Shown: piece by piece, positions 3,403-53,445 of the stretch
How the letters are laid out: each line of letters starts with the position of its first letter
How positions within the stretch are numbered: the first letter of the stretch is position 1
Source: Candidatus Aenigmatarchaeota archaeon
GTDB taxonomy: Archaea > Aenigmatarchaeota > Aenigmatarchaeia > PWEA01 > JAGHBM01
Assembly: GCA_021162085.1 (NCBI GenBank)
Contig: JAGGZI010000040.1
Coordinates: forward strand, 1 to 60,248
Direction of reading: 5' to 3'
DNA: 60,248 bases
Position numbers and translations under genes: made by a program
The notes under the pieces: model-generated
Databases searched by the model: none
What the model was told of the DNA's origin: nothing
Seen by the model: only the letters and a program-made list of their open reading frames with translations

Positions 3403-5403
3403 GTGAAGAAAATATTGGAATTGATTATAGTGGTTTGTATAGTTTTACTTAGCATTGAGTATGTAAAGGCAGGATATAATAATTCAGGAAGTAGCGCAAA
3501 CATTTGTGAGATAGCCCTTAAGATCGATGCTGCCGCCGACGCATCATCATTCAGTCTGTATCAAACGGCAAAGATAATGGTGTACACTATGAAGGCATGT
3601 GGTAGTCCCATAGATGCAGATGTATCCGGATACATAAAGAGACCAACGGGGATAATAGATAATCTAACATTTACCCACATTGATACAGGAATTTATGAAG
3701 CTGAATATATGTTCAACAGCACGGGAGACTATGAGTTATATGCTCAGGCAATTAATGCTACGTGGTGGACATCTGAGGAGTATGGTGGAAAGGTTTGGGT
3801 GAGAGAATACATATCAGTTCCATTTCTTTCCATGTACCTTTCTTTGCCTTATGGAACAAGATACCAAGTAGGGGACACTGTAAGGATATGGGCCCATGTT
3901 GAGGACAGCAACGGACTTCCAATAAACGATGCATCGGTGAACATAACGGTTTTCTATCCAAATCTAACAACAGCTTATGTTTCAGAACAACCAATGACGC
4001 TTTTTGCTAATGGGGATTATTATTATACCTTCACTGCTCCGGGTGTGGAGGGGCAGTACTTTGCCAGAGTTGAAGCAAGGGAAAACTTCTCGTATCAGAG
4101 CAAGTCAAAAACATTTGAAGTTGGAGGATGGGCATCTCAAATTGGAGAGATGAATAAGACTCTTGAGGAAACTGTGGTTCCTTACTTACAAGAGATAAAC
4201 AAGACAGTTCATTCTATAGATGACCTCTTGAATGATTTGAACATAACAATCAACAACATAAATACAGTTGCCGAAGAAATAAACAAAACCATAGGAAGGT
4301 ATACAGTAACTTATTACAACGATTCTGTTGTGAAGAGTTATATACCGGGCTCTGATTTATTACAGGTGATATGGAGAGAAGAAATTGGTGACGGTGAGTC
4401 GTGGATCGAGTACAGGGCAGTTGCAAATAATACTTATAACTTCACAGGTTCTCTGAATTTAACAAACATGGAGGTGGTTGGCTATTCCTGTTATAACTGC
4501 TCCGGATCCGATACTTTATCTATAACAACTACCAGGCTGAAGTATAGTTTTTTGACGAATTACGAAAAAGGATTCGACTTGAGGGTTAAATTAAAGAAAA
4601 AGGTAGGTACGGCGACATTTGATGGAACAATAAATGGAACAAGAAATGAAAACATAACATACTTGGGCAGGTCAGCTGTTACCTCACTGCCTTTTACTTT
4701 TGAGGTAATGGAGACCGCCTTGTCTTCGACGGTCATGAATTCCCTGGAAGAAAATCACAAGGATCTGACCAATGAAGTGGAACAGATAATATCAGACCTT
4801 AGTGCAATAGGGTCCAATGCGGTTGTGAGTAGTGGTGGAGGGAGTGGATACATTTATCAGGGAATAAACAACACAAAGGAAATTCTTGAGGGAGTAAGAA
4901 ATATGCTTGCAACGACAAAGACTCCAACCGCTGAGAGCATATCAGATATTATGGATAGATTGAACGATGCCAAGCAAGAGCTTCTGAATGTAATTGAAAG
5001 GTTGCATAAAGAAAGAAAGAACGAGGCAACGAGTCTTGCGCAATTGTTCTCAAGTCTGGAATCTGCATCAACCGTGACCATGTTGTTAGGACTTCTTTTC
5101 GTTATTTTGGTCATTGGGGTATTTCTTTACATATTGGTTAAATCTCGTGAGGAGGAGTTTGATTTTTCATCATTGCTATTCTGGAGAATGTTTAAGAAGG
5201 GAAGGGACAGCATTTCCAATAAGTTGATGGCATACTCGATTCTCTCTGGAAGAAAGGACATAGCAAATAAATTATTTAAATTATCAATCGCAAAAGATAT
5301 TCTGGAAGAGGGTAAAATGGAAGAGGATGTCAAAGAAGAAGTTAAGGGAGAAATTAAGAAGAGCATAATTGAAAGGTTAAAAGAAAGGTATAGAAAGAGG
5401 TGA
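3403..5403 (+). CDS. Large surface glycoprotein with C-terminal TM anchor
   Basis: Signal peptide KKILELIIVVCIVLLSIEYVKA. Ig-like stretch (YQVGDTVRIWAHVEDSNG...GQYFARVEA). Heptad-like N-x-T-rich stalk. TM VTMLLGLLFVILVIGVFLYILV followed by a K/E-rich tail. Confidence 0.65.
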   Translation: MKKILELIIVVCIVLLSIEYVKAGYNNSGSSANICEIALKIDAAADASSFSLYQTAKIMVYTMKACGSPIDADVSGYIKRPTGIIDNLTFTHIDTGIYEAEYMFNSTGDYELYAQAINATWWTSEEYGGKVWVREYISVPFLSMYLSLPYGTRYQVGDTVRIWAHVEDSNGLPINDASVNITVFYPNLTTAYVSEQPMTLFANGDYYYTFTAPGVEGQYFARVEARENFSYQSKSKTFEVGGWASQIGEMNKTLEETVVPYLQEINKTVHSIDDLLNDLNITINNINTVAEEINKTIGRYTVTYYNDSVVKSYIPGSDLLQVIWREEIGDGESWIEYRAVANNTYNFTGSLNLTNMEVVGYSCYNCSGSDTLSITTTRLKYSFLTNYEKGFDLRVKLKKKVGTATFDGTINGTRNENITYLGRSAVTSLPFTFEVMETALSSTVMNSLEENHKDLTNEVEQIISDLSAIGSNAVVSSGGGSGYIYQGINNTKEILEGVRNMLATTKTPTAESISDIMDRLNDAKQELLNVIERLHKERKNEATSLAQLFSSLESASTVTMLLGLLFVILVIGVFLYILVKSREEEFDFSSLLFWRMFKKGRDSISNKLMAYSILSGRKDIANKLFKLSIAKDILEEGKMEEDVKEEVKGEIKKSIIERLKERYRKR

Positions 5404-9534: not shown

Positions 9535-9789
9535 TTGGGGTGTGTCATCGTGAGGATATCAAGAGATGTTGTATTAAAAGAACATGAATTAAAGAATAGT
9601 CTATTTCCATTCAGGGATATGCAGGATCTGGTCAAGATAAGAAAACCCGTTGTTAAGAGAGTCGGCGATGTCGTCAAGGAATGTCATTTCTTTAAAGAGA
9701 CTGGACAGTGTTTTGGTAGCAGGTGTTTTTGGACCCGGCACGGGAGCTGTCCATTCTACGAGAGAATAAAGAAGACTGGAAAGGTTTAA
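9535..9789 (+). CDS. Small protein with CCCH-like Cys/His cluster
   Basis: C50-x8-C59-x4-C64-x4-H69 followed by GSCPFYE. Start codon uncertain (GTG). 4-nt overlap with the trm1 stop on the opposite strand. Confidence 0.35.
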   Translation: MGCVIVRISRDVVLKEHELKNSLFPFRDMQDLVKIRKPVVKRVGDVVKECHFFKETGQCFGSRCFWTRHGSCPFYERIKKTGKV

Positions 9790-10880
9790 ATGAATTTTAT
9801 AAGTTCTTCGAAACTGGCATTTGTCTTTATGGCAGTTGGACAAAAATGCGTTCTGGATGCCTTAAATCCAGATTCTTTTAAGTCTTTAATTATGTTTTCT
9901 ATTTTCTTTATTTGTTTTCCAGCCTTCTTACATATGTAGTGTGTATCATAGTATAATGAAAATGAAACTTCTTCCCTGATTTTATCTATTAAATTTTTTT
10001 CTTTTACAAACATTCTTTTCTCCATTTTCTTTTTAAGGCTATTAAGGAAGGTCTTGTTCTGTATTTCTCCGAGATATATTTCACAAAATTTTGTTTTGCT
10101 GCCACAGATGGGACATTTTTGATTTAAGGAAGCTCCTCTCCAACCACAATTGAAGCAATGACTTATATATCCAAATTCTTTCATTTCTCTGTTGACTCTT
10201 TTAACTCCTCTTTCAATCTTTCCATAGACTCTAAAGTAATGTCTCCTTGAATAGCTCAGATATGGAGTAAGACTAATCTCGTATCTACTGAACATTTTCA
10301 TCATTGACGAAATGAGTATTCTTATCCCAAGTTCGTTGTAGTAGTCTGGCTTGAATGACTCTATACCATACCTTCTCAGGCAGACCTTTGGATACGTCCC
10401 ACACAGAGGGGCTGTATCAGTTGCTGTAATTGACAGAAATCCCTCCTTTGGAAAACTTCTTGCCGCAGAATCTAAAAAATAAATTGGTGAACCAAATGGA
10501 TCTATATCTATGAAATCAAATTTGTTTTTTCTCATTATTATATTGGCATCTTCGTTTGTTATTTTCATCTCTATGTTGTTTATTTTTAAGTTCTTCTTTA
10601 TCAGTGAAGCTGCCTTCGGATTAGCATCATTTGCCCACGTGTTTATTTCAGATTCTTTTATGTAGCGCAGCGCCCTCACGCCGGTTGCTGAAAGGGCATC
10701 TAACGCTTTGATATCATTTCTTTTTTTGTTTAGTATCTCTGGAAGGAGGTCAGCGACGCACGTAGAGATATTTCTATCGAACGTCATTATGGGATTATAG
10801 AAAACTTCTCCCTCTTCTGATTTCTCTACATTCGGAATTTTTAGTTTTACTTTTCCTTCCTTGATTTCTCTAAGTTTCAT
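9786..10880 (-). CDS. trm1: tRNA (guanine26-N2)-dimethyltransferase Trm1
   Basis: FYNPIMTFDRNIS, DALSATGVRALRY, DIDPFGSP and a C-terminal CFNCG...CPICG zinc cluster. Confidence 0.9.
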   Translation of the reverse strand: MKLREIKEGKVKLKIPNVEKSEEGEVFYNPIMTFDRNISTCVADLLPEILNKKRNDIKALDALSATGVRALRYIKESEINTWANDANPKAASLIKKNLKINNIEMKITNEDANIIMRKNKFDFIDIDPFGSPIYFLDSAARSFPKEGFLSITATDTAPLCGTYPKVCLRRYGIESFKPDYYNELGIRILISSMMKMFSRYEISLTPYLSYSRRHYFRVYGKIERGVKRVNREMKEFGYISHCFNCGWRGASLNQKCPICGSKTKFCEIYLGEIQNKTFLNSLKKKMEKRMFVKEKNLIDKIREEVSFSLYYDTHYICKKAGKQIKKIENIIKDLKESGFKASRTHFCPTAIKTNASFEELIKFI

Positions 10881-11576: not shown

Positions 11577-12785
11577 TTATTTCTTCTTCTCATTTGAATC
11601 TTTTGCAGTCTCTTTGACCTTTTTTACCTTTTCTCTTTCAACTGCAATCTTCTTGACGTTGTCTATGAATCTCCTAACGTACTCCTTACTTAAGTTTATG
11701 TCTCTCTCACTGATTTCGTCAAGTTTTTTATCGTTTGCCATCTTCTTCATTTCAAGTATTTTGAAGAACACGTTTTCATAGATGGGATTCATTAATCCGG
11801 AGTCAATTAAGTGTTTTTTAAATGCAGATGGTAATTCTTTTGGATCTTCCGGTAACTTATTTATGGTTTTAAGCGCAGCCACGCTTGCCTTTATCATTAT
11901 CTCGTATGTTTTTTCTATGTCAGAAGTCTTCCTTCTGTTCTCAAGAACCTTTAGAATTCTCTCCATTTCCTTCACGAATTCTTTGGCCCTCTTTATGAAC
12001 TTGTCTACTTCTTCACCCTTTATTTCCTTTATTTCTCTGTGTTCGGTGGCTTTCCTGAATTTTACTATATCTTCAAGAATCTTTATGTATTCCTCTTTTG
12101 TCAGTCCATTCTCCACGAGGTATTTTCTTCCCACCTCAGGTGCATGGTTCGCATCTGGTGGTCCTCTGCCCATGTACATTACCACTGCCTGTAGTGAGTC
12201 TAAGACAGCATAGTAAAGGTCTTCTGCAACTATGTACAGTTTTGCATGTTCGGCTCTTCTCAACCTTTTTGGAACGTTTTCCATCCTGCTCTCTACAGCT
12301 TCCTTCGTGATTGGTATCTCTCCCATTTCAAGCAATCTCTTGTTGGTTAAGAAGAATCCAGTATCGTATACCGCTATTCCATCCTTAAGCAGATTGTATG
12401 CGAGCGGGGAGGTTCTTCTTATCATGCTCATAAATTCCGTTATCGTCCATACTGGCTGTGGAGAGAGTTTTTCATCTGTTTCCTCTGCAACCTTAAACAT
12501 GAAGTCATCTATTTCTGCTCTCAACTTCTTGGTGAAATCTCTTCTCGTATCGTCAACAAGAACAACAACATCAATATCACTTTTGCTTGTGAACTCGTTT
12601 CTCACAACGCTTCCCCAGGCAACAATGGACTTTATGAATGGTCCGTATTTTTCAAGAAGTCTCTTACTGAATTTTTTTATAATTTCAGCCCTTCTTCGCT
12701 TTTCAAAATCTTTTATTTTTTTGGCGGTTTTTCTTTTTATCTTGGTTTTACTTTCGAGTGTTTTCTTTTTGAATTTTACCTCCAT
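11577..12785 (-). CDS. Nucleotidyltransferase (MNT-type) fused to HEPN-like helical domains
   Basis: VAWGSVVRNEFTSKSDIDVVVLVDD (GS-x10-DxD pol-beta-type NTase). Downstream R-x5-H (RLRRAEH) lies in a helical region. K-rich termini. Confidence 0.6.
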   Translation of the reverse strand: MEVKFKKKTLESKTKIKRKTAKKIKDFEKRRRAEIIKKFSKRLLEKYGPFIKSIVAWGSVVRNEFTSKSDIDVVVLVDDTRRDFTKKLRAEIDDFMFKVAEETDEKLSPQPVWTITEFMSMIRRTSPLAYNLLKDGIAVYDTGFFLTNKRLLEMGEIPITKEAVESRMENVPKRLRRAEHAKLYIVAEDLYYAVLDSLQAVVMYMGRGPPDANHAPEVGRKYLVENGLTKEEYIKILEDIVKFRKATEHREIKEIKGEEVDKFIKRAKEFVKEMERILKVLENRRKTSDIEKTYEIMIKASVAALKTINKLPEDPKELPSAFKKHLIDSGLMNPIYENVFFKILEMKKMANDKKLDEISERDINLSKEYVRRFIDNVKKIAVEREKVKKVKETAKDSNEKKK

Positions 12786-22387: not shown

Positions 22388-22540
22388 ATGGATTTTTATG
22401 ATTTTGCGATAAGGATGGAAAAACAAAACTTAAAAATCTAAAGAGGGATGTATAGATGGATTTTTATGATTTTGCGATAAGGATGGAAAAACAAAACTTA
22501 AAAATCTAAAGAGGGATGTATAGATGGATTTTTATGATTT
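22388..22540 (+). repeat. Perfect 68-bp tandem duplication (2 copies plus a 17-nt partial third copy that is the rnp3 start)
   Basis: 22388-22455 and 22456-22523 are identical (ATGGATTTTTATGATTTTGCGATAAGG...AGAGGGATGTATAG). 22524-22540 repeats the first 17 nt and is the real gene start. A degenerate partial copy lies at about 22362-22387. Confidence 0.9.
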
Positions 22541-23213
22541 GCATGCTCACGTTGAAGATTTGAAAAGTGTGGAAGAAATAGTTGAGATAGCCAAGAGGAT
22601 AGGATATTCTGGAATAGGTTTGACTGTTAAGTATGCCAATATAGGAGAATTAAGGAGACTAAAGGAAAAAATAAATGAACTCAAAAGTGGAATTGATATA
22701 GCAACCTGTGTTGAGATAGATGCCAGCGGGGTTAAGGAGCTCAGGAGAAAGGTCTCCAAGGCGAGAAAGCTCTCTGAAGTGATCGTAGTTTCTGGTGGTG
22801 ATTATAAAATCAATCGGGCTGCGTGTGAGGATTCACGAGTTGATATACTGGCTCATCCGGAATACAAGAGATCCGACTCTGGGATTGACCATATAGTTGT
22901 CCGCGCCGCCCATGAGAACAACGTGGCAATAGAGATAAATTTTCATGAAATTTTAGAGACGTACAGGAAGATAAGGGCCCATGTATTAAGTCATATGAGA
23001 AGGAATGTGATGCTTGCCGAAGAATACAATGCACCAATCATAATAACTTCTGGAGCAAGGAGCAAGTGGGAGTTGAGAGGTCCGAGGGAACTCTCGTCCG
23101 TGGGCCAAGTCCTCGGAATGAGTCTGGAGAATTCTATGAAGTCAGTATCTGACGTACCAAGGCTCATCGTTGAGACCAACAGAAGAAAACTCAAGGTGTT
23201 GCCTCATGGCTGA
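22524..23213 (+). CDS. rnp3: RNase P protein component 3 (Rpp30, PHP-like)
   Basis: MDFYDLHAHV start typical of Rpp30/PHP domains. Size ~229 aa. 8-nt overlap with the downstream Pop5 gene (ATGGCTGA). Confidence 0.8.
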   Translation: MDFYDLHAHVEDLKSVEEIVEIAKRIGYSGIGLTVKYANIGELRRLKEKINELKSGIDIATCVEIDASGVKELRRKVSKARKLSEVIVVSGGDYKINRAACEDSRVDILAHPEYKRSDSGIDHIVVRAAHENNVAIEINFHEILETYRKIRAHVLSHMRRNVMLAEEYNAPIIITSGARSKWELRGPRELSSVGQVLGMSLENSMKSVSDVPRLIVETNRRKLKVLPHG

Positions 23214-23601
23214 TATACCAAAAACTTTGCCACCAACGCTGAGGGGTAAGAAAAGATACATAGTATTTGAGATAATAAGTGAAAAGAAGTTGGAGTTCTC
23301 TGAAATTCTAAATGCGTTCTGGCATTCCATACTCAATTTCATGGGGGAGATGGGAACATCCAGGACAAATATATGGTTTGTAAAGGATATGTGGGAAGAA
23401 AAAAATCAGCGTGGTTTGATTAGATGCAATCACAAGCAGGTTGAGTACGTCAGAGTGGCACTGGCGCTCATAGACAGAATTGGTGATGTTCAGGTAATTC
23501 CATTCACCCTTGGCGTCAGCGGAACTATGAAAGCTGCAAAGAGAAAATTTTTTGGAGAGCGAACCCTGGAGGATTTCGAAGTTCCACCTGAAGAATCTTA
23601 G
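23206..23601 (+). CDS. rnp2: RNase P protein component 2 (Pop5)
   Basis: LPPTLRGKKRYIVFEI... N-terminus typical of archaeal Pop5. ATG 23206 overlaps the rnp3 stop, so the TTG 23170 extension is rejected. Confidence 0.8.
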   Translation: MADIPKTLPPTLRGKKRYIVFEIISEKKLEFSEILNAFWHSILNFMGEMGTSRTNIWFVKDMWEEKNQRGLIRCNHKQVEYVRVALALIDRIGDVQVIPFTLGVSGTMKAAKRKFFGERTLEDFEVPPEES

Positions 23602-23874
23602 AGTGATGGCCAGGTAATAATATGGAAGTTATTCTGGATTAAATATGTCTATAAACCGAAGCATCCATTGGAGAGCGAAGATGCAGAAATTCTGGAAATG
23701 AAGTTGAAAAATAAAATCTAGTATTTAAGTGAATCTTCAAATATGTTAGAATTGTACTCTCATATGAAGAGAATTCTCTTAATTTTGGTCCCATTGTTGT
23801 TTTTGATTTTCTCTTTTCAGGCAAGGCGCGCAACTTAACTGTGAATTTTAGAAATTTAATTTTTGTCAGCTAAG

Positions 23875-24119
23875 TGGTGCGGGGGACGAGATCTTCGTAG
23901 GGCGATAAAGCTTTCTTTCGCTGTTTCGAATTCACGGATCCATTCTTTTTCACACATGCCTCAAAGTTTCTTTTCCCTAGAGGCTTTTCTTTGTGAAAGA
24001 AAAGGCTCTCTCGCGAAGCGCCTACGCGCACAAGGCCCTCAACCTTGCCCCATATCCAATTGACTGCACAAACTTAAGCTTCATGCAGGCCAATTTTTTG
24101 ACCACTCGGGCACCCCCGC
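23875..24119 (-). tRNA. tRNA-Leu(GAG), class II, encoded CCA, three predicted introns (D-loop, 53/54, 59/60)
   Basis: Minus strand reads GCGGGGG-UG-CCC-GAGUGGUCAAA[~45 nt]GGG-G-CAAGG-UUGAGGG-CCUUG-U-GCGC-GUAG-GCGC-UUC-GCGAG[79 nt]UUCGAA[33 nt]U-CUCGU-CCCCCGC-A-CCA. Acceptor stem is perfect. The spliced product would be about 88 nt, like known archaeal tRNA-Leu. Confidence 0.75.
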
Positions 24120-26664: not shown

Positions 26665-26951
26665 TGGTGCTCCCGCCGGGAGATTTCCAGCACGAAGCAC
26701 ACTACGTGTGCTTCAACCCCTTTCCATCAACATCACCAAAGTTTCTTTGGAAGTACAGAAACTTTCTTTGTGAAAGAAAGGATCTGTTTTGAACCCGGGT
26801 CTCGAGCTCTCTCCAAAGTTTTAGTTTTGCTTAAAGCTTTTTCTAAAAACTTACGAGAGGCTCGCATCCTTAGCCATTGTCCAAACCTTCCTTTTCTTTT
26901 CCTGAAGGATTTCTTTTTGTGAAAAAGAAAGGCTTCCTAGACTACGGGAGC
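26665..26951 (-). tRNA. tRNA-Glu(CUC), encoded CCA, three predicted introns (D-loop ~58 nt, 37/38 45 nt, 59/60 ~106 nt)
   Basis: Minus strand reads GCUCCCG-UA-GUCU-AG[intron]AAUGGCUAA-GGAU-G-CGAGC-CUCUCG[intron]A-GCUCG-AGAC-CCGGG-UUCAAA[intron]U-CCCGG-CGGGAGC-A-CCA. It closely parallels known archaeal tRNA-Glu. The spliced length would be about 78 nt. Confidence 0.7.
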
Positions 26952-26990: not shown

Positions 26991-27163
26991 TGGCGGGCCT
27001 GGAGGGACACTCAAAAGTTTGTCGACTTAGTGTAGTCCAAGTTTGTGCATCCAACTTCACTCGAACCCCCAATCTCTCGGTTTCTTAGATACCTTAGTTT
27101 TGATGAAACTTTTTCTAAAGTTTCTCCGAAGCCGAGCGCGTTATCCAGTTACGCTACAGGCCC
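26991..27163 (-). tRNA. tRNA-Arg(UCG), encoded CCA, two predicted introns (37/38 44 nt, 59/60 ~52 nt)
   Basis: Minus strand reads GGGCCUG-UA-GCGU-AACUGGAUA-ACGC-G-CUCGG-CUUCGG[intron]A-CCGAG-AGAUU-GGGGG-UUCGAG[intron]U-CCCUC-CAGGCCC-G-CCA. The spliced length would be 77 nt. Confidence 0.75.
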
Positions 27164-40917: not shown

Positions 40918-41706
40918 TCACTTTACAAAGTTTTTAAAGTATTTTTCCCTTATTTCTTTGCCCTTCTCCATCGATATTTTTATGGCTTCGTTGAGTTCGT
41001 CTGCCGTGAATCCGCCTACACCACTCTTTTGCATGGCACACATGGCACCGTCTATTGTTGTTATGGTTATCTTGCCTTCTGTTGCTTCTTCTTCCTCGTA
41101 AGTTGGGTCAACGAGCAGCTTTCCTGAAATTTTATTTACAGTACATGATATAGGTATTTTGCTTATTTCAAGTTTTCCTGTGTATTCTTCTCTATTTATA
41201 GTTTCATCTTCCTCAATTTTTGGTATTTTCGTGTCTAGAAGCGCTGCTATGGCACCTATGCTTGAGGCATCCATCAAGTTTCCACCATCACTTATTATGT
41301 GAATGTCAACGAAAACTATCCACACCCTTTCTCCTTCCTTTATGCATAGTTTTTTCAGGTTTATTGCTTTGGACTCTCTTATACCTCTGTCGACCACTCT
41401 TGCAAGTTCTATTGCATTTTCATCAGGAGGTCCTGACTCGAATTCTGGTGATGCTATTGGGACAAGCTCTGCGTTGACTATTAAAATTCCTTCATCTGGT
41501 GTGTCAGGGAAAGGTTCTCCAACTTCCATCTTAACTCCCACCAAAACTTTGGTATCTCCTAACGTTACGAGCGCAGAACCTTCTGCATTCTTGACGTAAC
41601 CTGTTTCTATTTTCATATCCCTGAATTGTAAGAAGTCTCTACCGTCATCTCTCTTACCTTCTTTAACGAGATTTTTTATGTAAGTCTTATCTATTTCTGT
41701 GATCAT
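40918..41706 (-). CDS. rrp42: Exosome complex component Rrp42
   Basis: RNase PH-like fold: GKRDDGRDFLQFRDMKIETGYVKNAEGSALVTLGDTKVLVGVK. Confidence 0.9.
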   Translation of the reverse strand: MITEIDKTYIKNLVKEGKRDDGRDFLQFRDMKIETGYVKNAEGSALVTLGDTKVLVGVKMEVGEPFPDTPDEGILIVNAELVPIASPEFESGPPDENAIELARVVDRGIRESKAINLKKLCIKEGERVWIVFVDIHIISDGGNLMDASSIGAIAALLDTKIPKIEEDETINREEYTGKLEISKIPISCTVNKISGKLLVDPTYEEEEATEGKITITTIDGAMCAMQKSGVGGFTADELNEAIKISMEKGKEIREKYFKNFVK

Positions 41707-41710
41707 TCTT

Positions 41711-42466
41711 TCACCTCTCTTCGTTATTTTCTCGGGGAATCTCTTCTATTTTTTCCCATACCTCATACTTTCTTTTTAGCGCTTTAACCTGCTCGTCGTA
41801 TATCTTTTTGCATCCTTCTATTGCCATTCCTATAGCCTTTTTGAATTCGTCATGCGTTAGTATACCATCCATCTGGAGCAGGTATATCTTATTATCACTT
41901 GGAATGTATGCTATTGGAAGGTCAACTTCTCCTTCTGTGTCCTCCTTTCCTGCAACATCCAGTACAATTTCTCCATCAACTTTTCCAACTGAGCAGGATG
42001 CCATTAGGTCCTTCATTGGTATACCTGCATCTGCAAGAGCCAGAGAGGCGGCATTCAATCCTACACATCTCGTGCTTGCATTTGCCTCAAGAATTTCTAT
42101 GTAAATTTCTATTCCTGCCCTTGGGAATTCGTCCAGATTTATTACAGATGACAGAGCCTCCCTTATAACTTTGCTGATTTCAGCCGACCTTCTACTTGGG
42201 CCAGGCCTCACCCTTTCCGTTGTGGAGAATGGGGCCATGTTGTATCTGCATTTTACAAATGCCTTAATTGGATCCACAAGGTGCTTTGGGTGCAGTTCTC
42301 TTGGTCCATAAACAGCTGCAACAGCAGACGTATTACCAAGTCTGAAGTAAGCTGAGCCTGTAGCCCTTTTAATTATACCAACTTTTGCTTCCATTTCTCT
42401 CATTTCATTTAACTTTCTTCCATCCAATCTTATACCATTTTTTATAAGTTTAACTTCTTCACTCAT
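41711..42466 (-). CDS. rrp41: Exosome complex exonuclease Rrp41 (RNase PH-like)
   Basis: RLDGRKLNEMREMEAKVGIIKRATGSAYFRLGNTSAVAAVYGPRE and GPSRRSAEISK phosphate-site-like motif. Confidence 0.92.
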   Translation of the reverse strand: MSEEVKLIKNGIRLDGRKLNEMREMEAKVGIIKRATGSAYFRLGNTSAVAAVYGPRELHPKHLVDPIKAFVKCRYNMAPFSTTERVRPGPSRRSAEISKVIREALSSVINLDEFPRAGIEIYIEILEANASTRCVGLNAASLALADAGIPMKDLMASCSVGKVDGEIVLDVAGKEDTEGEVDLPIAYIPSDNKIYLLQMDGILTHDEFKKAIGMAIEGCKKIYDEQVKALKRKYEVWEKIEEIPRENNEER

Positions 42467-43176
42467 TCTTTATCACCTTTTATTTCTTTATCAAGCATTT
42501 CTGATATTCTATTCGTTAGTCCATCTACGTGGCTTTCCCTTTCAACCATCATTACTGCCTTGGCTGCAAGGGATTCTCTACCACCGTTTATCCATACGAG
42601 TCCGTTCTGTCCAACTATTATCTGGCAGCCAGTTTTGTTCTTTATCATCTCTATCATGCTGCCATTCTTTCCTATGAGCCTTGGAACCTTCGCGGGTGTT
42701 ATCCTTACTATGTTTCCTCCGTGAAGCTTTCTGCACATCCTATCCTTCATTGTTAGTTGAACATCTTTTTTCTTTGTAACTCTCTGAATCTTTGCGTATA
42801 TAACGTCTCCCACATCGAAGTATTCGGTTATATCCTTTCTTGACAGGTCAACGAATTCTTCAACGGCTTCCGCCAAGGAGAGATATCCTATGTATGGCGA
42901 ATTTATGTCAACCAACCATGACGTTATCTGAACGTCTTTTATTTCTCCTATCACCCTATCGTTTGGTATTGGTACATAAACACCCGCCAACGGTATCACA
43001 CTTATAAGGTGTTCCTTTATCTTTACCAATCCAAGGATGTTACTTCTTATCTCTCCATTTTCTTTGTAAGCGCCCTTCCCAGGCAAAAAATCTATTCCCC
43101 TGGCCAATAACTCGCCAGGCACGACTACCTTTCTTTCTCCAACAAATAATTTACTTTCCTGTTTAACTTCTTCCAT
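42463..43176 (-). CDS. rrp4: Exosome RNA-binding subunit Rrp4 (S1 + KH)
   Basis: S1 region (DRVIGEIKDVQITSWLVDINSP) and KH motif (LIGKNGSMIEMIKNKTGCQIIVGQNGLVWI). MEEVKQ start chosen; the 36-aa upstream extension looks non-coding. Confidence 0.88.
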   Translation of the reverse strand: MEEVKQESKLFVGERKVVVPGELLARGIDFLPGKGAYKENGEIRSNILGLVKIKEHLISVIPLAGVYVPIPNDRVIGEIKDVQITSWLVDINSPYIGYLSLAEAVEEFVDLSRKDITEYFDVGDVIYAKIQRVTKKKDVQLTMKDRMCRKLHGGNIVRITPAKVPRLIGKNGSMIEMIKNKTGCQIIVGQNGLVWINGGRESLAAKAVMMVERESHVDGLTNRISEMLDKEIKGDKE

Positions 43177-46566: not shown

Positions 46567-48912
46567 CTACTCCCATGGGTTTGAAACAACTACAGCTTTT
46601 ATCCAATCTATTTTCAAATTAAAACCATTACCATTCCAATAATTCGGGCATATATCTATTCTTTTCACTTTTCTACTGGTATCGAATCCATTAAAGGTGA
46701 TTTCTTCTGGATATGAAATTGAATTTACCGTATAGTAATCATGACCATTCATTAATACATTTCCAAGTCCAAGTTTACTGCAATCATCACCCACATAACA
46801 TACAAATGGATAAATATCAATATTCGGATTTGTAAAGCTGTCTGTCGCTGAGTATCTCATTTTCAATGAGTAGATGTACATTGGATTACTTTCTAAATCT
46901 ATTTTTATACATTGTGCAACAAAATAGTCTTTGAGACCAGCCGATGAGTAATAAGCGTTACACCTTCCAGTCTGGGTTGAAGAACCCTTCATATCAAGAC
47001 ATAGATAGTCACTATCTTGCCAATCGCTGCAATACCGCCGAATACAATTATCATCATTACAGTCCTGGTCAATTGTTATATCATTTTCACATGTTGTAGA
47101 TCGGCAGCCTCCTTTAATTTTTGTTATGTTTGGATTTAGACATATAGTTTTTAAGCATCCCTCATTTGTGCACAAGCCACTTACCTGTGAGCAGCTTGGG
47201 CAGAACTCACTTCTGATACAATAACAAGCACTCGAAGATGCATCACCACAACCAAAGTTATTTCCTGTTGTGTCAAAGTAAAATGGAAGTTGTTTATAAC
47301 TTATGCAAGTGTCTAAAATTGAAAGAGGACCAGCCACACATTGCGGATTTGGAGTAGTAATTGTGTTTCTGCATGCTCCATAAGAATTGGCATTTAAATG
47401 CTTACATGCAGCATCACAGGGATCTGCAGGCTTTTGTGCACATCCTGAGTTGTCGTTGTTACACCCATAAGCACATTGTTGAATTGGTCCGACAGATTCC
47501 ACACATCCATCTCCATTCGTATCCGCACAATTTAGTAAATATGCTTTACCATCCTCTCCTACATAGCATGTTGTGCCACCATTTTCAAGTCCATGTTGTA
47601 CACATATTTGTTCCGGTTGACATGGAGGTTTAGTTAAGCTCTCATTTGTTGTGAATTTGACCCAGGCAATTTTATGGTCTTTGCTATCACGTTTTGGACA
47701 AATATCTATCATATCCAATTTTTTGTCTACAAAGATATGGTTCAAAACATTGTATCCCTCAACATCTTCTGCAATGGTATGCCACCCATCACCATTGTTA
47801 TTACAACTTCCATCGTAACAACCAAAAACATAAAGGTCATTGTGTCCGTCATCAGAGCCAGACCTGAACCACAAATCTTTTACATATACAGATTTTCCAT
47901 AGAAATCTTTGAAATTTAATCGAAGACATTGGCCAGTTTCGATGTTAGACCTTTTACAATCTCCGGATTGATCTAAACATATTGTAATATCATTATTTAC
48001 ATTTTGGTATGGATCTGAGTATAAATAATATATTTTTAGCGGAATACTAGTACAATCCGAAGATATGCCATCACTTATTCTATCTTTTTGGCAACCAGTT
48101 GACGAAACACTACAACCAATTTTCTCCAATAAACTCTTGCCTGGAACTTTTTCAGAATTGGCACAGTATTCAGTAAAATTATTAATATTTCCATACTCTT
48201 TTTTACAATCTTCTTCCGTTTTATCTATTGGGCAACATACATTTAGATTTTTATTCCATTCCCAATCTTCCGGACAACAATAATAATATGTGAAATTTGT
48301 ATAAGTTTCTCCAAAAATCCCAGAATAGTGTGAAGAGATTTTATATTTAAAAAACAAATTTTGTCCACTGAAGTAATTATTTTCAACGGGAGATGATAAA
48401 GAATATATACAATTATGCACTCCTTTATATTCACACTTTGGTTGATCTTTCACGCTATTGGTGAAGTCTGGGGAAGTAGAGTCAAAACCTTTGTATATCT
48501 CCGTTTTAAGTGCTGAAGTTTCTCCATGAGACATACCAGTAAGAACTCTCCCCGAAGCTTGAGTATTTTTTATAATACAACTTCCTTCTCCTCCAGGAAC
48601 ATCACATCTCCACTTAGTCTCAATTTCATGAGATTTTTTTTCATTTTTATTGTCTACTTTTTGTTCTATAACTACAAAAGTATATTCCGGTGACGATTGA
48701 TCACTCAGGCAGGTTATTGAGGCTCCCTGATTCTCATTCTCACTTCCATTGAACATTTCCCACGCATTGCTTATGATGTCACTAACTGAACGAATTGGCT
48801 TAGCCTGGTGCATCATACCAAGACCAAACCCAAGGACGGCGAGGGCAAGGATTATGGTTACAACAACAATTATAACACTACTACCGACACCCTTACCATT
48901 TCCCATATTCAT
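46567..48912 (-). CDS. Giant Cys-rich pilin-like protein (781 aa), putative tip adhesin
   Basis: MNMGNGKG|VGSSVIIVVVTIILALAVLGFGL class III-like N-terminus. Roughly 70 Cys. Internal duplication of a ~110-135 aa module ending IDICP...W[VI]K[FA]. Confidence 0.7.
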   Translation of the reverse strand: MNMGNGKGVGSSVIIVVVTIILALAVLGFGLGMMHQAKPIRSVSDIISNAWEMFNGSENENQGASITCLSDQSSPEYTFVVIEQKVDNKNEKKSHEIETKWRCDVPGGEGSCIIKNTQASGRVLTGMSHGETSALKTEIYKGFDSTSPDFTNSVKDQPKCEYKGVHNCIYSLSSPVENNYFSGQNLFFKYKISSHYSGIFGETYTNFTYYYCCPEDWEWNKNLNVCCPIDKTEEDCKKEYGNINNFTEYCANSEKVPGKSLLEKIGCSVSSTGCQKDRISDGISSDCTSIPLKIYYLYSDPYQNVNNDITICLDQSGDCKRSNIETGQCLRLNFKDFYGKSVYVKDLWFRSGSDDGHNDLYVFGCYDGSCNNNGDGWHTIAEDVEGYNVLNHIFVDKKLDMIDICPKRDSKDHKIAWVKFTTNESLTKPPCQPEQICVQHGLENGGTTCYVGEDGKAYLLNCADTNGDGCVESVGPIQQCAYGCNNDNSGCAQKPADPCDAACKHLNANSYGACRNTITTPNPQCVAGPLSILDTCISYKQLPFYFDTTGNNFGCGDASSSACYCIRSEFCPSCSQVSGLCTNEGCLKTICLNPNITKIKGGCRSTTCENDITIDQDCNDDNCIRRYCSDWQDSDYLCLDMKGSSTQTGRCNAYYSSAGLKDYFVAQCIKIDLESNPMYIYSLKMRYSATDSFTNPNIDIYPFVCYVGDDCSKLGLGNVLMNGHDYYTVNSISYPEEITFNGFDTSRKVKRIDICPNYWNGNGFNLKIDWIKAVVVSNPWE

Positions 48913-48954
48913 AACTTATCACTATAAATCTTCTTCTTCATTATTTTTAAAGAT

Positions 48955-50613
48955 TTATCCGGTCTGAACACAATACAATCTGTTTTTATTATTACATCCA
49001 CTTGAGATTATATCAACCCAGTTGAAACTATTCTCATTTGATAAACCAAGATGGCCAAAGTCCTCGTCGTCTCCTGTAGTCCATCCGTCTTTATCTGATG
49101 TCCAGTCTCTACAAGAATTATTTTCCTCATATTGCCCAGTTTTGTTGCTTCCTGTCCAAACATAATAACCATTCGCGATGAGATTACCATTTTCGTCATA
49201 ATTTATTGCATTTTCTATTGAGCCATCCCACAGGTCATCACAGTCCGTAGATATCACGTCTCCGTGAGTATTCTTTAAGTAACAGTTTGATATTCTATTC
49301 CTGGCATCTGTATTCGAGTCCGATAGGAGTGCTACGAACGTGCCACTTAATCCAGCATTACTTGCAAGTTCCTGACATTTCGCATCTGCTCCACTAAGCC
49401 CACCAAGCGAACCATTGTAAACTTCAGATGTCACGAAGATTATTCTATATGGGGTAACTATGCAACCATTCTCATTTTCACACTTGTCTATGCCACAGTT
49501 ACAGGATTGTTGATACTCACAATAGCAGCTTTGTCCAGACTGGCAGTTGGCTTTTTCTTTCTTCACCCAATAGTTGCATAAGCCACCTGAGCACGCATTG
49601 ACTGGATAATCAATATCACATTTTGAGTCAATGGCACTTTCACATACATTTTCTACTATCCTTGTGAAACTCATCGTATCCTCTATGCCAAATGTTAGAG
49701 CAAGTTTTTTCATGCCATCGGGAGTTGGAATTTTAGTGGATTTATCTATAACACTTACACTTATTACAAATGAAGCTTTGTAGTTGTTGAATCCCATATT
49801 CAATAAATTCATCTTCACCAGTTTTAGTTCCCATTCGATGTTATTATCATTTTTACCATTTGCTATTTCATTCAACTTGGATTGAATTTTGTTTTTAGCT
49901 TCATTTTCGGATAATGTTCCACCTTCAGAGCCGCAGACTTTGACATAATCTAATACATCCTTAAGTTCACTTTTCAAATCATTAATATTATTAACGAAGT
50001 TCTTAGCCTTGTCGTACAAAATGAAGTATTTTGTGGGAATGTCAGTTTCTATCTTTTCATTACCTTCGATTGTTTGATTTAATGATTCATCGCCTTGGTA
50101 TTTGTTGCTTGAGAATAAGTTTGCTTCATAACTTAGTTTTATTTTTGAATTTGTGTAGTCCATTTTTATTTTTGGTGTAGGATCATCGAGATATCTATTA
50201 ACTTTTACGTCAAGGTCAGAAGCGAAGTTATCAAACCATCCTTTATATGTTTCGTTTATTCTGCTACCAAGCTGGGAGGCAACATCATCCTTACTTGGAT
50301 AATTATCCTTTGACCAGCATACATATCCTTCGCATTTGCCCCATGTGTTGTATTCGGTAGAATCTTTATCCAATCCACCATTTAAGCCGTTCTCATACAG
50401 AGAGTTCACTCCGGACAACCAGAGAGCATTTCCTAAAAATTGTTTATCTGCATCATAGTGTGCCTGTGCTTCCATGAGTTTCCCTTCGTCAAGCATTATG
50501 GTGTATCCCACAGAATTCTTTGTGAGTTTAATAGATTCATACGAAATTACTCCACCAACAATTATTCCAGTGATTATTATTAGTGCAATCACGAGTCCAG
50601 CGATGCCCTTCAT
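48955..50613 (-). CDS. Pilin-like protein (552 aa) with C-terminal endostatin/C-type-lectin-like domain
   Basis: MKG|IAGLVIALIIITGIIVGGVISY N-terminus; Cys-knot-like middle. C-terminus: GSLGGLSGADAKCQELASNAGLSGTFVALLS ... VWTGSN ... CRDWTS ... RLYCV. Confidence 0.7.
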   Translation of the reverse strand: MKGIAGLVIALIIITGIIVGGVISYESIKLTKNSVGYTIMLDEGKLMEAQAHYDADKQFLGNALWLSGVNSLYENGLNGGLDKDSTEYNTWGKCEGYVCWSKDNYPSKDDVASQLGSRINETYKGWFDNFASDLDVKVNRYLDDPTPKIKMDYTNSKIKLSYEANLFSSNKYQGDESLNQTIEGNEKIETDIPTKYFILYDKAKNFVNNINDLKSELKDVLDYVKVCGSEGGTLSENEAKNKIQSKLNEIANGKNDNNIEWELKLVKMNLLNMGFNNYKASFVISVSVIDKSTKIPTPDGMKKLALTFGIEDTMSFTRIVENVCESAIDSKCDIDYPVNACSGGLCNYWVKKEKANCQSGQSCYCEYQQSCNCGIDKCENENGCIVTPYRIIFVTSEVYNGSLGGLSGADAKCQELASNAGLSGTFVALLSDSNTDARNRISNCYLKNTHGDVISTDCDDLWDGSIENAINYDENGNLIANGYYVWTGSNKTGQYEENNSCRDWTSDKDGWTTGDDEDFGHLGLSNENSFNWVDIISSGCNNKNRLYCVQTG

Positions 50614-51035
50614 TTGTAAAACCTCAACTGAATATTTTCATATCCACCTAGAACTGCAATCTTTCTGAAGGCGGTGTAGTGTTTCCCATTCAAATCTATG
50701 TTATTTGGGTTAAGTGTTTGGTCCTTAAACACCAACACGGCTTTGTAATTTCCAAACATATCGTTGAATTTGTTTTTGATAATTGTCTTTATGTTGTCAT
50801 CTCCTGTGATAAGGTATTCACTTATAAGATCTCTCATAGTAATTCCGTTGACCCTCATTCCAAGGAAAGAGTTAAATGTTAATTCTGGAAAAGTTGGTTC
50901 GGCTATCTCTTCTTTTATATCTGACTTGAATTCCAAGAGGTGATAAGAGTGTAGAACTGTCAGAAGCATAACTGCAAATATTATACCAATCGATATCATT
51001 GCAATGAAAAAACATGTGACAATTCCCTTTCTCAT
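50610..51035 (-). CDS. Pilin-like protein (141 aa)
   Basis: MRKG|IVTCFFIAMISIGIIFAVMLL. 4-nt overlap with the downstream gene. Confidence 0.6.
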   Translation of the reverse strand: MRKGIVTCFFIAMISIGIIFAVMLLTVLHSYHLLEFKSDIKEEIAEPTFPELTFNSFLGMRVNGITMRDLISEYLITGDDNIKTIIKNKFNDMFGNYKAVLVFKDQTLNPNNIDLNGKHYTAFRKIAVLGGYENIQLRFYK

Positions 51036-51046
51036 AAACTACACCA

Positions 51047-51583
51047 CTAAATGGGAGGTAACGATGTTGAACCTTTTGGTGGAAGCTTGTAATATGTCTT
51101 CAACTTGAGGATTGCAGGCTCGTCTCCACCATCAGACCTTATTAGAACAGGCAATGTGATCTGAATTCCAGGCTTTTTACCAAAGAGCCACAGGAATGGA
51201 AGTATCATGGATTGTTTTGGCTCATTCGTGAGGTCATAACTAAAGTCCCATTTGTCATTGGAGGAACTTATCGTTAAGTCAAAGTACGTCCTGTACATCT
51301 TTACACAATCTATGTCACCAGTTTGTTTCCTTTCATCCAGGAGAGTTTTATTCAAAATTCCCATTTCTCCTGTGCTGAAGCAATCCTTTGAAGTTAATAT
51401 CCTACTGAGCATGGACATCTGTACAATTTCTTGAGTCACTATGTCTGCTCCTTCCTCTTCCTGCTTGAGTATCCCAGCGAAGAATCCTATGGAAAAGGCG
51501 AGCGCAAAGACTAGCAAAATGAAGGCAAAAATACAAACAATCGTGTTTATTCCAAATCCTTTGTTAGAGATCACTCTTTCCAT
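51047..51583 (-). CDS. Pilin-like protein (178 aa)
   Basis: MERVISNKG|FGINTIVCIFAFILLVFALAF. Confidence 0.6.
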   Translation of the reverse strand: MERVISNKGFGINTIVCIFAFILLVFALAFSIGFFAGILKQEEEGADIVTQEIVQMSMLSRILTSKDCFSTGEMGILNKTLLDERKQTGDIDCVKMYRTYFDLTISSSNDKWDFSYDLTNEPKQSMILPFLWLFGKKPGIQITLPVLIRSDGGDEPAILKLKTYYKLPPKGSTSLPPI

Positions 51584-51993
51584 ATGGATATAACATCACC
51601 ATTTTTGTCTATATGAACTATCGTATTTCCATGGTTGCATTCTATGGTTGACGGCACCTCGATTTTTGTGTCGTTTAAGAAGTACATACCATATGTCATC
51701 TGATTTAGACCTTTGGTTGTGGTTTTTATGTACTTATTTGTTGAGTCAAGTGTCATAGTGCATGATAGGGCACCTATTTTAATTTTTGCTGTTTGGTTCT
51801 GCGGGCTTGAGGAAATTATGTTCATGATACCCACAACGCTCTGTGTTATTGATGTAGCCCTTGAGAGACCCAATATATTGCTTCCCCATCCGCCAACCTT
51901 AGCATACACAACACCAAAGAAAAATGCGATTATCACAGTTATCAAAAGCATCATCATAAGATTCATCATGGCTCCCTTTTTCATTTTCACCAA
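51571..51993 (-). CDS. Pilin-like protein (140 aa)
   Basis: MVKMKKG|AMMNLMMMLLITVIIAFFFGVVYA. Overlaps both neighbours. Confidence 0.6.
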   Translation of the reverse strand: MVKMKKGAMMNLMMMLLITVIIAFFFGVVYAKVGGWGSNILGLSRATSITQSVVGIMNIISSSPQNQTAKIKIGALSCTMTLDSTNKYIKTTTKGLNQMTYGMYFLNDTKIEVPSTIECNHGNTIVHIDKNGDVISIWKE

Positions 51994-52802
51994 CCCAGAC
52001 TATGGTGTTTTGAACAACTCCAGTCTTTGGACTTTTCCGGCCAATTTGTATCTACTGGTTCGGATGTTATACCAAACGGTCCTTCAAAAAGCCTAATAGT
52101 AGATTTAATTATAGTACCTCCTAAATCAACAGGATCATTGTTCCAGCAAAAGTTTTTATCCGATGTGAATCCATCCTTCTTACCAAGATTTCTTATCTTA
52201 CAAATTTTTATTTTGTCTTTAGTTTTGTCGTAGTAAACCTTAACCTCTGCTCCACATGGGCTTAAAAGCCAGAATGGTTCCACCTTACCTGATAGGTCCT
52301 TATCAAATTCCACTTTGTCGTTGTTGCTCATTTCAACCATTCCATAGCAGATTCCGTTAGGACATTTATCATAAACAACATGTTGAACATCTGTGAATGT
52401 TATTTCATAAAGTATGATTCCTATGCTACCTTTTTCTCCACCTTTCTCTCTGCTATGGTATATTATCCATTTTGGGTCGTTTCCATAACTGTAGTCACCA
52501 CCATGTACATAATATGTTATACCCTTTGTCAGTTGTTGTGGCATGGTTATGTTAACTTTTTCCTCGCAGTCCTCAGGGTGTCCGTTTGTCTTGCTCTCTT
52601 CCTCCTGAACGCACTGATAGACTCCTTTTATTGCATCTCCAAGCCTAAGAGCACTACCGGTTGTTGCGGCTCCCTCGGAGAGAACTTGATTGGCACCAAG
52701 GGCATGCCATATAACTACGAGGAGTACGAATCCAATTGCTACGGACAGGAAAATGGTCAACAAGTGTCCAACTTCAGTTCCCTTCACAAAATCACCCAAC
52801 AT
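51987..52802 (-). CDS. Pilin-like protein (271 aa)
   Basis: MLGDFVKG|TEVGHLLTIFLSVAIGFVLLVVIW. Several Cys in the globular part. Confidence 0.6.
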   Translation of the reverse strand: MLGDFVKGTEVGHLLTIFLSVAIGFVLLVVIWHALGANQVLSEGAATTGSALRLGDAIKGVYQCVQEEESKTNGHPEDCEEKVNITMPQQLTKGITYYVHGGDYSYGNDPKWIIYHSREKGGEKGSIGIILYEITFTDVQHVVYDKCPNGICYGMVEMSNNDKVEFDKDLSGKVEPFWLLSPCGAEVKVYYDKTKDKIKICKIRNLGKKDGFTSDKNFCWNNDPVDLGGTIIKSTIRLFEGPFGITSEPVDTNWPEKSKDWSCSKHHSLGW

Positions 52803-52938
52803 TTATGTTACCTACAATGTCTTCTATTCTTGGTTTTATTCCCATCAATATTATTATGAGTATTATTGATAACACTATCAAAAACACTATTACAGTCCAT
52901 AGTACTCCAGATGTTTTCTCCCATGTTAGAAGGCCCAT
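52792..52938 (-). CDS. Mini membrane/pilin-like protein (48 aa, not in ORF track)
   Basis: Hand translation: MGLLTWEKTSGVLWTVIVFLIVLSIILIIILMGIKPRIEDIVGNINVG. The ATG overlaps the upstream stop (TAATG). Its own stop overlaps the next gene's start region. Confidence 0.45.
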   Translation of the reverse strand: MGLLTWEKTSGVLWTVIVFLIVLSIILIIILMGIKPRIEDIVGNINVG

Positions 52939-53093
52939 TATCCACCACCCTGAAGTACCTTGCCCATTTCATTTATAAGGTCAAATGTTTTTCCATGAAC
53001 TTTTCCATAAAGGAAGAAAATGAAAAGTGCAATGATTATGAAAATTATTATCACCAACAATGCAGCAAGTACGCCTCCAATACCTTTTCTCAT
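52938..53093 (-). CDS. Mini-pilin-like protein (51 aa, not in ORF track)
   Basis: Hand translation: MRKG|IGGVLAALLVIIIFIIIALFIFFLYGKVHGKTFDLINEMGKVLQGGG. ATGA overlap with the upstream stop. Paralogous to 53090..53257. Confidence 0.5.
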   Translation of the reverse strand: MRKGIGGVLAALLVIIIFIIIALFIFFLYGKVHGKTFDLINEMGKVLQGGG

Positions 53094-53257
53094 GTGTTCA
53101 CCTTTCCTATAACTTGGTTGAATATTTTTTCAAGGGCATCAAGCCCAAATTTTTTTCCCTGATTAAGTATGAGAACAACTATACCGAGGATGACAAGTAT
53201 TAATATGAAGGCTATAAGAAACCATATTATTTGTGATATACCTTTTTTCTTCAACAT
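53090..53257 (-). CDS. Mini-pilin-like protein (55 aa)
   Basis: MLKKKG|ISQIIWFLIAFILILVILGIVVLILNQGKKFGLDALEKIFNQVIGKVNT. The internal Met is preferred to the ORF-track start at 53284. Confidence 0.5.
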   Translation of the reverse strand: MLKKKGISQIIWFLIAFILILVILGIVVLILNQGKKFGLDALEKIFNQVIGKVNT

Positions 53258-53445
53258 CCACAAGGACCTCCCGGTAGAAGCCATGTTCTTAAAGGACCTG
53301 CAATCTTAAAATTACAGTAAATCCAACATCCAGCATTTTTCAGTGATAAACCATATCCCTTTACACCACTATAGACAGCAAAGACAAACATGAAGAGAAT
53401 TAAGAACACTATCAGGGCAAGTATGACTGCAACTGTCTTATTCAT
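53251..53445 (-). CDS. Small membrane protein with 4-Cys tail (64 aa)
   Basis: MNKTVAVILALIVFLILFMFVFAVY, then ...NAGCWIYC...GGPCGC. AAGGAG lies upstream of the ATG. Confidence 0.45.
   Translation of the reverse strand: MNKTVAVILALIVFLILFMFVFAVYSGVKGYGLSLKNAGCWIYCNFKIAGPLRTWLLPGGPCGC

Follow-up and report, generated by a model that had tools for sequence, protein, structure and literature searches.

A leucine tRNA gene in four pieces, with three introns at unusual positions, in a DPANN archaeon

The stretch of DNA analyzed here, 60,248 nt in total and henceforth referred to as the window, carries three multiply interrupted tRNA genes, all on the minus strand: a tRNA-Leu(GAG) gene at 24119..23875, which is the subject of this report, and, 2.5-3 kb away from it, a tRNA-Arg(UCG) and a tRNA-Glu(CUC) gene. 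Archaeal neighbors in the window encode L15e, the RNase P protein Rpp30, Pop5, Nre, and an archaeal-type ProRS. The named relatives of Rpp30 all belong to Candidatus Aenigmarchaeota/Aenigmatarchaeota, the nearest being 69% identical and orthologous proteins about 60-69%. Judged from these protein sequences, the host, a tiny uncultured organism, is a DPANN archaeon (Aenigmarchaeota) and not a member of the Thermoproteales. In the nearest relative (locus L001), gene order is kept (Pop5 ... MFS), and the same tRNA gene is found in the gap upstream of the MFS gene.

RNA-processing genes abound in the window, at 9786..10880 (minus), 11577..12785 (minus), 22524..23601 (plus), and 40918..43176 (minus). 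The set comprises Trm1 (m2,2G26 methyltransferase), a 402-aa nucleotidyltransferase-domain protein that is possibly the CCA-adding enzyme, Rpp30, Pop5, and the exosome core (Rrp41, Rrp42, Rrp4). A Pfam scan of 50 window ORFs returned neither EndA nor RtcB, and tblastn with the M. jannaschii EndA (sequence checked against PDB 1a79) found no EndA in the window and 13 archaeal loci. The minus strand of 46567..58584 contains a series of large ORFs, 781, 552, 690, and 757 aa long, together with several smaller ones (110-270 aa). Pfam matches are almost absent here, apart from a T2SSE/type IV ATPase domain and, below threshold, an Endostatin match in the 552-aa ORF. The region may represent a locus for the cell surface or for pilus-type structures, of a sort typical of DPANN.

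The tRNA-Leu gene spans 245 nt, from the 5' end GCGGGGGTGCCCGAGTGGTCAAA to the 3' end CTCGTCCCCCGCACCA. As had been described in the first-pass annotation of this DNA, these ends form a perfect 7-bp acceptor stem (GCGGGGG/CCCCCGC), followed by discriminator A and an encoded CCA. The anticodon arm (CAAGG-TTGAGGG-CCTTG), the variable arm (T-GCGC-GTAG-GCGC-TTC), and the pieces of the T-arm (GCGAG ... TTCGAA ... T-CTCGT) are likewise present exactly as written there. For the analysis the precursor was numbered 1-245, such that the window coordinate equals 24120 - n. Exons then occupy precursor positions 1-23 (or 1-24), 69-110 (or 67-110), 190-195, and 229-245, the alternatives reflecting two possible registers, X and Y, of the first intron. 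The features, in the order of transcription, are:

24097..24119 (24096 as end in register X), minus strand: exon 1, with the acceptor 5' strand, U8, G9, the D-stem 5' strand, and the 5' part of the D-loop (GCGGGGGTGCCCGAGTGGTCAAA)
24052..24096, 45 nt (register Y), or 24054..24095, 42 nt (register X), minus strand: intron 1, in the D-loop (about position 20b/21-21/22)
24010..24051, minus strand: exon 2, with the D-stem 3' strand, G26, CAAGG-UUGAGGG-CCUUG (anticodon GAG), GCGC-GUAG-GCGC, and the T-stem 5' strand GCGAG
23931..24009, 79 nt, minus strand: intron 2, at 53/54, with an HBh' motif and belonging to intron family 1
23925..23930, minus strand: exon 3, a 6-nt micro-exon UUCGAA, T-loop positions 54-59
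23892..23924, 33 nt, minus strand: intron 3, at 59/60, central helix exon UUCG/intron CGAA
23875..23891, minus strand: exon 4, with U60, the T-stem 3' strand CUCGU, acceptor CCCCCGC, discriminator A, and CCA (23877..23875)

Joined, the exons yield a class II product with a long variable arm, 88 nt (register Y) or 91 nt (register X) in length, CCA included. ARAGORN calls this spliced product tRNA-Leu(gag), in agreement with the isotype and anticodon originally assigned. Its acceptor stem has 7 bp, its anticodon stem 5 bp with a loop of 7 nt, and its T-stem 5 bp with a UUCRANY loop; together with the D-arm and the long variable arm, these are the features of a class II tRNA-Leu(GAG). We conclude that 24119..23875 is a genuine tRNA gene for leucine, divided into four pieces by three introns whose positions are unusual. 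Standard searches do not recognize it in unspliced form: ARAGORN reported 0 genes in the whole window, and Rfam gave no tRNA at gathering threshold in the window and none at E<=10 in the local region around the gene. With three introns, such a miss by models applied to the raw sequence is to be expected and does not count against a tRNA. A scan of the window for 7-bp acceptor pairs combined with U8 and NCCA retrieved 3 tRNA-like candidates in 60 kb, tRNA-Leu among them, the remaining matches being near the shuffled level (16 vs 4-13). GC content is 67% in the exons, 40% in the introns, and 38% in the window as a whole, and the precursor fold has a z-score of -2.67 relative to shuffles. A split or permuted tRNA gene was considered and rejected, as all four exons are collinear on one strand within the 245 nt. 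A C/D-box sRNA inside intron 2 was rejected as well, no C/D boxes being seen by eye.

The lengths given initially for the two T-region introns, 79 nt at 53/54 and 33 nt at 59/60, are exact. At 53/54 the boundary is unique because no sliding is possible there, and at 59/60 it is fixed by the 7-nt T-loop. The D-loop intron is less sharply delimited, since a run of six A's leaves its register open (42 vs 45 nt), and both registers are equal in energy (-16.5 vs -16.8 kcal/mol). The earlier figures of about 45 nt for this intron and about 88 nt for the product thus hold in register Y, while register X gives 42 and 91 nt. We favor register Y, on sequence grounds, because the D-loop it produces has the length found in five intronless homologs. 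The mature D-loop junction is predicted to read GGUCAAAGGGG in register Y and GGUCAAAAAUGGGG in register X, with exon joins (^) GGUCAAA^GGGG and GGUCAAAA^AUGGGG, respectively. In the T region, the predicted joins are GCGAG^UUCGAA and UUCGAA^UCUCGU.

Each junction was compared with the strict hBHBh' form of the bulge-helix-bulge (BHB) motif, in which a 4-bp central helix separates two 3-nt bulges bearing the splice sites and, for a canonical intron, the central helix takes in the first two bases of the anticodon (PMC4090602). The relaxed HBh' and hBH forms were also accepted. Under the rule applied, exon nucleotides -6..-3 pair with intron nucleotides -6..-3, leaving the final two nucleotides of both exon and intron in bulges. 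Importantly for the reading of these matches, junction positions were set by the cloverleaf, independently of the central-helix rule, and among random site pairs a 4/4 central helix arises by chance in 2.1% (0.021) when the pairs are drawn from this genome and in 2.8% when they are drawn from the precursor. The first-pass annotation had staked its reading on BHB-like motifs at the three junctions; all three have one.

At 59/60, UUCG (54-57) pairs with CGAA (4/4). The bulges read AA^A and GA^U, and the T-stem provides the outer helix. By its geometry this junction would be a strict BHB once the T-stem forms, that is, after removal of intron 2. At 53/54, the exon nucleotides C48-G51 (CGCG) pair with CGUG of the intron (4/4), with AG^A as 5' bulge and AA^U at the 3' end. 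An inner helix GAGCC/GGAUC (4/5) is present and the outer helix is missing, which makes this an HBh' motif; in the MFE fold the 3' bulge (AA) could instead pair with U46/U47. Intron 1 folds as a long hairpin, UUGG-C-CUGCAUGAA / UUUGUGCAGUCAA. In register X its central helix consists of U19-G64, C20-G63, A21-U62, and A22-U61 (UCAA/UUGG, 4/4) with a 5' bulge of 4 nt; in register Y it consists of G18-U66, U19-A65, and C20-G64 (3/4) with clean 3-nt bulges and a contiguous inner helix. The 3' splice site is within a 3-nt bulge adjoining the D-stem. The predicted fold of the D-loop junction is therefore BHB-like in either register and imperfect in both.

Orthologs were taken from L001, a second relative (L002), and a metagenome scan. 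A further scan of genome contigs with the anticodon-arm pattern gave mostly bacterial (Solirubrobacterales) tRNA-Leu(GAG) genes and, among the matches listed, at least three archaeal loci (L013, L017, L084), so that the multi-intron state has been sampled too thinly across taxa. The tRNA-Leu introns of the clade are distributed as follows:

Window: 15/16 absent; D-loop 45 or 42 nt; 53/54 79 nt; 59/60 33 nt
L001: 15/16 50 nt; D-loop 38 nt; 53/54 42 nt; 59/60 51 nt
L128: 15/16 50 nt; D-loop 38 nt; 53/54 86 nt; 59/60 51 nt
L002: 15/16 45 nt; D-loop 42-44 nt; 53/54 absent; 59/60 64 nt
L125: 15/16 80 nt; D-loop 13-14 nt; 53/54 71 nt; 59/60 present, running off the contig end
L124/L126: 15/16 apparently absent; D-loop ~72 nt; 53/54 absent; 59/60 absent

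Four intron sites are thus used in this clade, and L001, L002, L124, L125, and L128 hold different subsets with precise boundaries. Every ortholog has a D-loop insert, ranging from 13-14 to about 72 nt and unrelated in sequence; that of L124/L126 might be composite, which leaves its 15/16 entry uncertain. The 53/54 intron is missing from L002 and L124 exactly at the predicted boundary, L002 reading contiguously GCGAGTTCAAAT, and L124 also lacks the 59/60 intron, its whole T-arm being contiguous. These contiguous orthologs confirm the T-arm boundaries in the window. Together with the cloverleaf, this pattern of presence and absence bears out the claim of three introns, none of them at 37/38. 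The micro-exon UUCGAA is kept between the two T-region introns in the window, L001, L128, and L125, and exon 4 is identical in the window, L001, L002, and L128. The tRNA-Leu(GAG) genes of L001 (4882..5150, minus) and L128 (313-nt gene, minus) carry four introns, at 15/16, in the D-loop, at 53/54, and at 59/60, each of which is missing from at least one other ortholog or homolog.

Intronless tRNA-Leu(GAG) genes are found in L013 (Woesearchaeota), L017 (Aenigmatarchaeota), L127, and L129/L130. They are 79-86% identical to the spliced window product and share its anticodon arm, variable-arm layout, and D-loop length. The existence of such homologs indicates that the introns were gained within one sub-lineage. 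In L084 (uncultured archaeon SRP141376_co4_278), a tRNA-Leu(GAG) at ~3690..3835 (plus) bears a single insert of ~65 nt in the variable arm. The body of this insert, GCAAAAGCGTTCGCGGAAAA, resembles the 15/16 intron of L001, GCAAAAGCGTCTACGGAAAAA, a sequence likeness that hints at an intron family reaching beyond the clade.

All spliced ortholog forms are called tRNA-Leu(gag) by ARAGORN. When nine homologs, spliced or intronless, are compared, pairing in the cloverleaf is 100%, and 11 of its 22 pairs show compensatory changes, including all 3 D-stem pairs, which can form only across the D-loop intron(s). None of 500 shuffles reaches this level of pairing, and all slid controls collapse. Exons are 88-99% identical to those of the clade orthologs (88-93%, and 70/71 to L125), whereas same-site introns share only 24-60% identity, with the exception of the family-related 53/54 intron of L128 (77%). 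Conserved exons combined with diverged introns argue against a pseudogene.

The helices at the splice sites of homologous introns covary. Central helices (exon/intron) read CCCA/TGGG, TCCG/CGGG, and GTCT/GGAC at 15/16; CGCG/CGTG or CGCG/CGCG at 53/54, 4/4 in all four orthologs having this intron; and TTCG/CGAA, TTCA/TGGA (L002), and TTCG/TGAG at 59/60. The inner helices covary as well (GAGCC/GGATC, AAGCC/GGCTT, AACCT/GGGTT). Relaxed central helices of 3/4 occur at L125 15/16, in the L001 D-loop, at L001 59/60, and at 37/38 of the tRNA-Arg gene.

Just past the CCA, the 3' flank of the window gene (23874..~23825, minus) is almost identical to L001 4881..~4820, reading CTTAGCTGACAAAAATTAAATT(T)CTAA(A/T)ATTCACAGTTAAGTTGCGCGCC, despite the proteins of window and L001 being only about 69% identical. 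A 30-nt block of this flank (CTGAC...CACAG) is missing from L128, and in both L001 and L128 the flank continues ...GCGCGCCCGCACCA, which is tRNA 3' end-like. The flank might serve as a trailer or in processing, derive from a leftover exon, or be one more intron-like insert.

The two other tRNA genes of the window are built in the same manner:

27163..26991, 173 nt, minus strand: tRNA-Arg(UCG) gene with two introns
27125..27082, 44 nt, minus strand: Arg intron at 37/38, family 2
27059..27008, 52 nt, minus strand: Arg intron at 59/60, central helix 4/4
26951..26665, 287 nt, minus strand: tRNA-Glu(CUC) gene
26936..26877, 60 nt, minus strand: Glu intron at 15/16, family 1, central helix 4/4
26853..26809, 45 nt, minus strand: Glu intron at 37/38, family 2, central helix 4/4
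26787..26682, 106 nt, minus strand: insert in the Glu T-loop, containing a family-1 copy

The tRNA-Arg gene was missed by both ARAGORN and Rfam, and the tRNA-Glu gene is likewise hidden from standard finders; in spliced form, 77 and 76 nt long, the two products are called tRNA-Arg(tcg) and tRNA-Glu(ctc). Their junctions obey the same pairing rule as those of tRNA-Leu, apart from Arg 37/38 (3/4) and the Glu T-loop insert. Taken as a single intron, this insert has a central helix of 2/4 and fails the strict BHB rule, and a brute-force search for two introns removed in two steps returned many weak solutions, none of them compelling. The insert may be composite, which would bring the number of introns in tRNA-Glu to four.

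The introns at these loci fall into families that cross both sites and genes. The window Leu 53/54 intron is related to the 53/54 intron of L128 (z = 21) and to the 15/16 intron of L125 (z = 16), and the window 53/54 and L125 15/16 sites share the exon context CGAG^U. These three constitute the Leu members of family 1 (CCTTTYCTTTCACAAAGAAAG...AAAGAAAC), which further includes the window Glu 15/16 intron and part of the Glu T-loop insert. Family 2 (TTTAGAAAAAGYTT...CAAAACTAA) consists of the 15/16 intron of L002 tRNA-Leu and the canonical 37/38 introns of the window Glu and Arg genes; the L002 intron matches Glu 37/38 at 28/29 nt and is also like Arg 37/38. The intron copies in the window Glu gene were located, at 26853..26825 and 26779..26763, by blastn-short of the introns against the window. 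Similar introns are thus found at different positions and in different tRNA genes. Within each family the body is conserved, and the last 6-9 nt at the 3' end vary and pair with the local exon. A shared body with a re-tailored 3' end suggests that the introns were most likely gained by transposition between tRNA sites. In the Thermoproteales, the combination of a conserved body and a varied 3' end has been described as a signature of intron transposition (Fujishima 2010, as cited in PMC4033280 and PMC10714607).

Taken together, these data indicate that the locus is very probably a functional class II tRNA-Leu(GAG) gene, whose precursor would carry three protein-spliced BHB introns. The direct basis for this reading consists of the sequence itself, the cloverleaf, BHB geometry, presence and absence of introns in orthologs, covariation, and family relationships; from these we infer transcription, cleavage, ligation, order of removal, and mobility. 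Alternatively, an ancestral tRNA-Leu(GAG) gene might have been broken by three small mobile or repeat insertions that are not removed, with another tRNA taking over decoding. The inserts do belong to repeated families present elsewhere, gene finders do not detect the gene, and a second, intact tRNA-Leu(GAG) could lie beyond the 60-kb window. However, the exons are 88-99% conserved in orthologs whose Rpp30 is only about 60-69% identical, and the introns are not conserved; the changes in the stems are compensatory with 100% pairing; and each insert bears a covarying 4-nt complement to its own exon context in a splice-competent geometry. The Arg and Glu genes of the window share this construction and would have to be dead as well. 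We regard this as very improbable.

It is improbable, too, that the gene is functional with some other exon-intron structure, be it the 42-nt rather than the 45-nt D-loop register or nested or rearranged T-region introns. The run of A's does allow two D-loop registers of equal energy, CGUGAA of intron 2 can pair with CUCGU to give alternative precursor folds, and the 106-nt T-loop insert of the window Glu gene fits no single strict BHB intron. Yet the 5-bp T-stem and the 7-nt UUCGAAU loop make the 53/54 and 59/60 boundaries unique, and L002 and L124 confirm them, so that only the D-loop register is truly open. That the plus-strand ORF 23863..24063 (66 aa) is a real small protein gene with incidental tRNA features is scarcely credible. 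It figures in the mechanical ORF list, but it has a TTG start and no Pfam match and runs antisense to a fully paired, covarying cloverleaf. Moreover, its frame runs through both T-region introns, of which intron 2 is missing from L002 and L124 and intron 3 is replaced by unrelated sequence in relatives. An ORF spanning introns that are missing or replaced in relatives cannot be conserved, and its earlier dismissal as spurious appears reasonable.

For the functional, spliced tRNA-Leu gene, we propose the following course of events. Transcription would yield a precursor of about 245 nt plus leader that still contains the three introns (D-loop, 53/54, and 59/60). Immediately upstream of each 5' splice site, four exon nucleotides would pair with four intron nucleotides lying immediately upstream of the 3' splice site, thereby placing both cut sites in short bulges to be cleaved by EndA (six cuts in all), after which an RtcB-type ligase would join the exons. 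Intron 2 would probably be removed first, as its HBh' motif, which requires no outer helix, draws on the 5' strand of the T-stem. This motif and the T-stem are mutually exclusive, because the central helix C48-G51 overlaps the T-stem 5' strand. [quoted passage not shown] Removal of intron 1 would be independent of introns 2 and 3. Since the 3' end of intron 2 (CGUGAA) resembles the 5' strand of the T-stem and can itself pair with CUCGU in an alternative precursor fold, the reverse order, intron 3 before intron 2, is conceivable in this model. Relaxed motifs need a broad-specificity endonuclease (PMC5829648, PMC3239211), and by analogy the tRNA-Leu introns would require an EndA of this type.

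On a wider scale, we lean towards the view that a sub-lineage of the Aenigmarchaeota underwent a burst of tRNA-intron gain, independent of that in the Thermoproteales and past the recorded limit. In this scenario, tRNA-Leu(GAG) orthologs came to carry three to four introns, all three window tRNA genes became multiply interrupted, and at least two mobile families moved among 15/16, 37/38, 53/54, and the T-loop, adapting to each new exon the complementary 4-nt 'guide' at their 3' end. If true, the Aenigmarchaeota would possess an as yet uncharacterized splicing endonuclease of broad specificity, an enzymological prediction of its own, and 'missing' tRNAs in DPANN genome bins would be explained. 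Such bins are routinely scored as lacking tRNAs, and the three window genes are a concrete case in which at least part of this gap reflects multi-intron genes, not loss. In evolutionary terms, the locus adds a second, independent system for the spread of BHB introns in a phylum far from the Thermoproteales, for which multi-intron tRNAs and intron transposition have essentially been described so far; here, too, intron families are shared, and single introns distinguish one ortholog from another. The known maximum rises, in the relatives of the window, from three to four introns per gene.

Multi-intron BHB tRNA genes and transposing introns are of an already known kind; what is new is the phylum, and more novel still are two side results, the orthologs with four introns (L001, L128) and the intron families shared across sites. 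In the literature searched, no description of multi-intron tRNAs in Aenigmarchaeota was found. The first-pass annotation had placed such genes in the Thermoproteales and a few other archaeal lineages, and the present host, a DPANN archaeon of the Aenigmarchaeota, is one of these others. In the Thermoproteales (Pyrobaculum, Thermofilum, Caldivirga), up to three introns per tRNA gene are reported (Sugahara 2007/2008, as summarized in PMC4033280, PMC4090602, and PMC8450103), and reviews as well as the tRNAscan-SE 2.0 paper (PMC8450103) give three as the maximum for archaeal tRNA genes, which contrasts with the four introns of L001 and L128. As at our locus, the Thermoproteales have BHB, HBh', and hBH introns at non-canonical positions of the D- and T-arms, one of which must sometimes be removed before the next motif forms, and similar introns in different tRNAs and positions (Fujishima 2010, as cited in later papers). 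[quoted passage not shown]

Closer in host type is ARMAN-2 (Ca. Micrarchaeum; epsilon2 EndA; PMC3239211, PMC3488258), likewise a DPANN archaeon, in which a relaxed hBH intron at 59/60, a tRNA with two introns in the T-loop region, and many disrupted tRNA genes are known. The 59/60 hBH intron is cleaved in vitro by ARMAN-2 EndA (PMC3239211). ARMAN-2 belongs to another phylum, however, and the present gene differs by combining three introns, one of them in the D-loop, with a micro-exon of 6 nt. Kaneta et al. (2018; PMC5829648), who linked DPANN EndA variants to disrupted tRNA genes, predicted cases such as this one: in DPANN archaea with an alpha4 EndA bearing an L3 loop, tRNA sets seem incomplete, with disrupted genes going undetected. 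Aenigmarchaeota were absent from their sample of 46 species, and the paper describes no individual genes like these.
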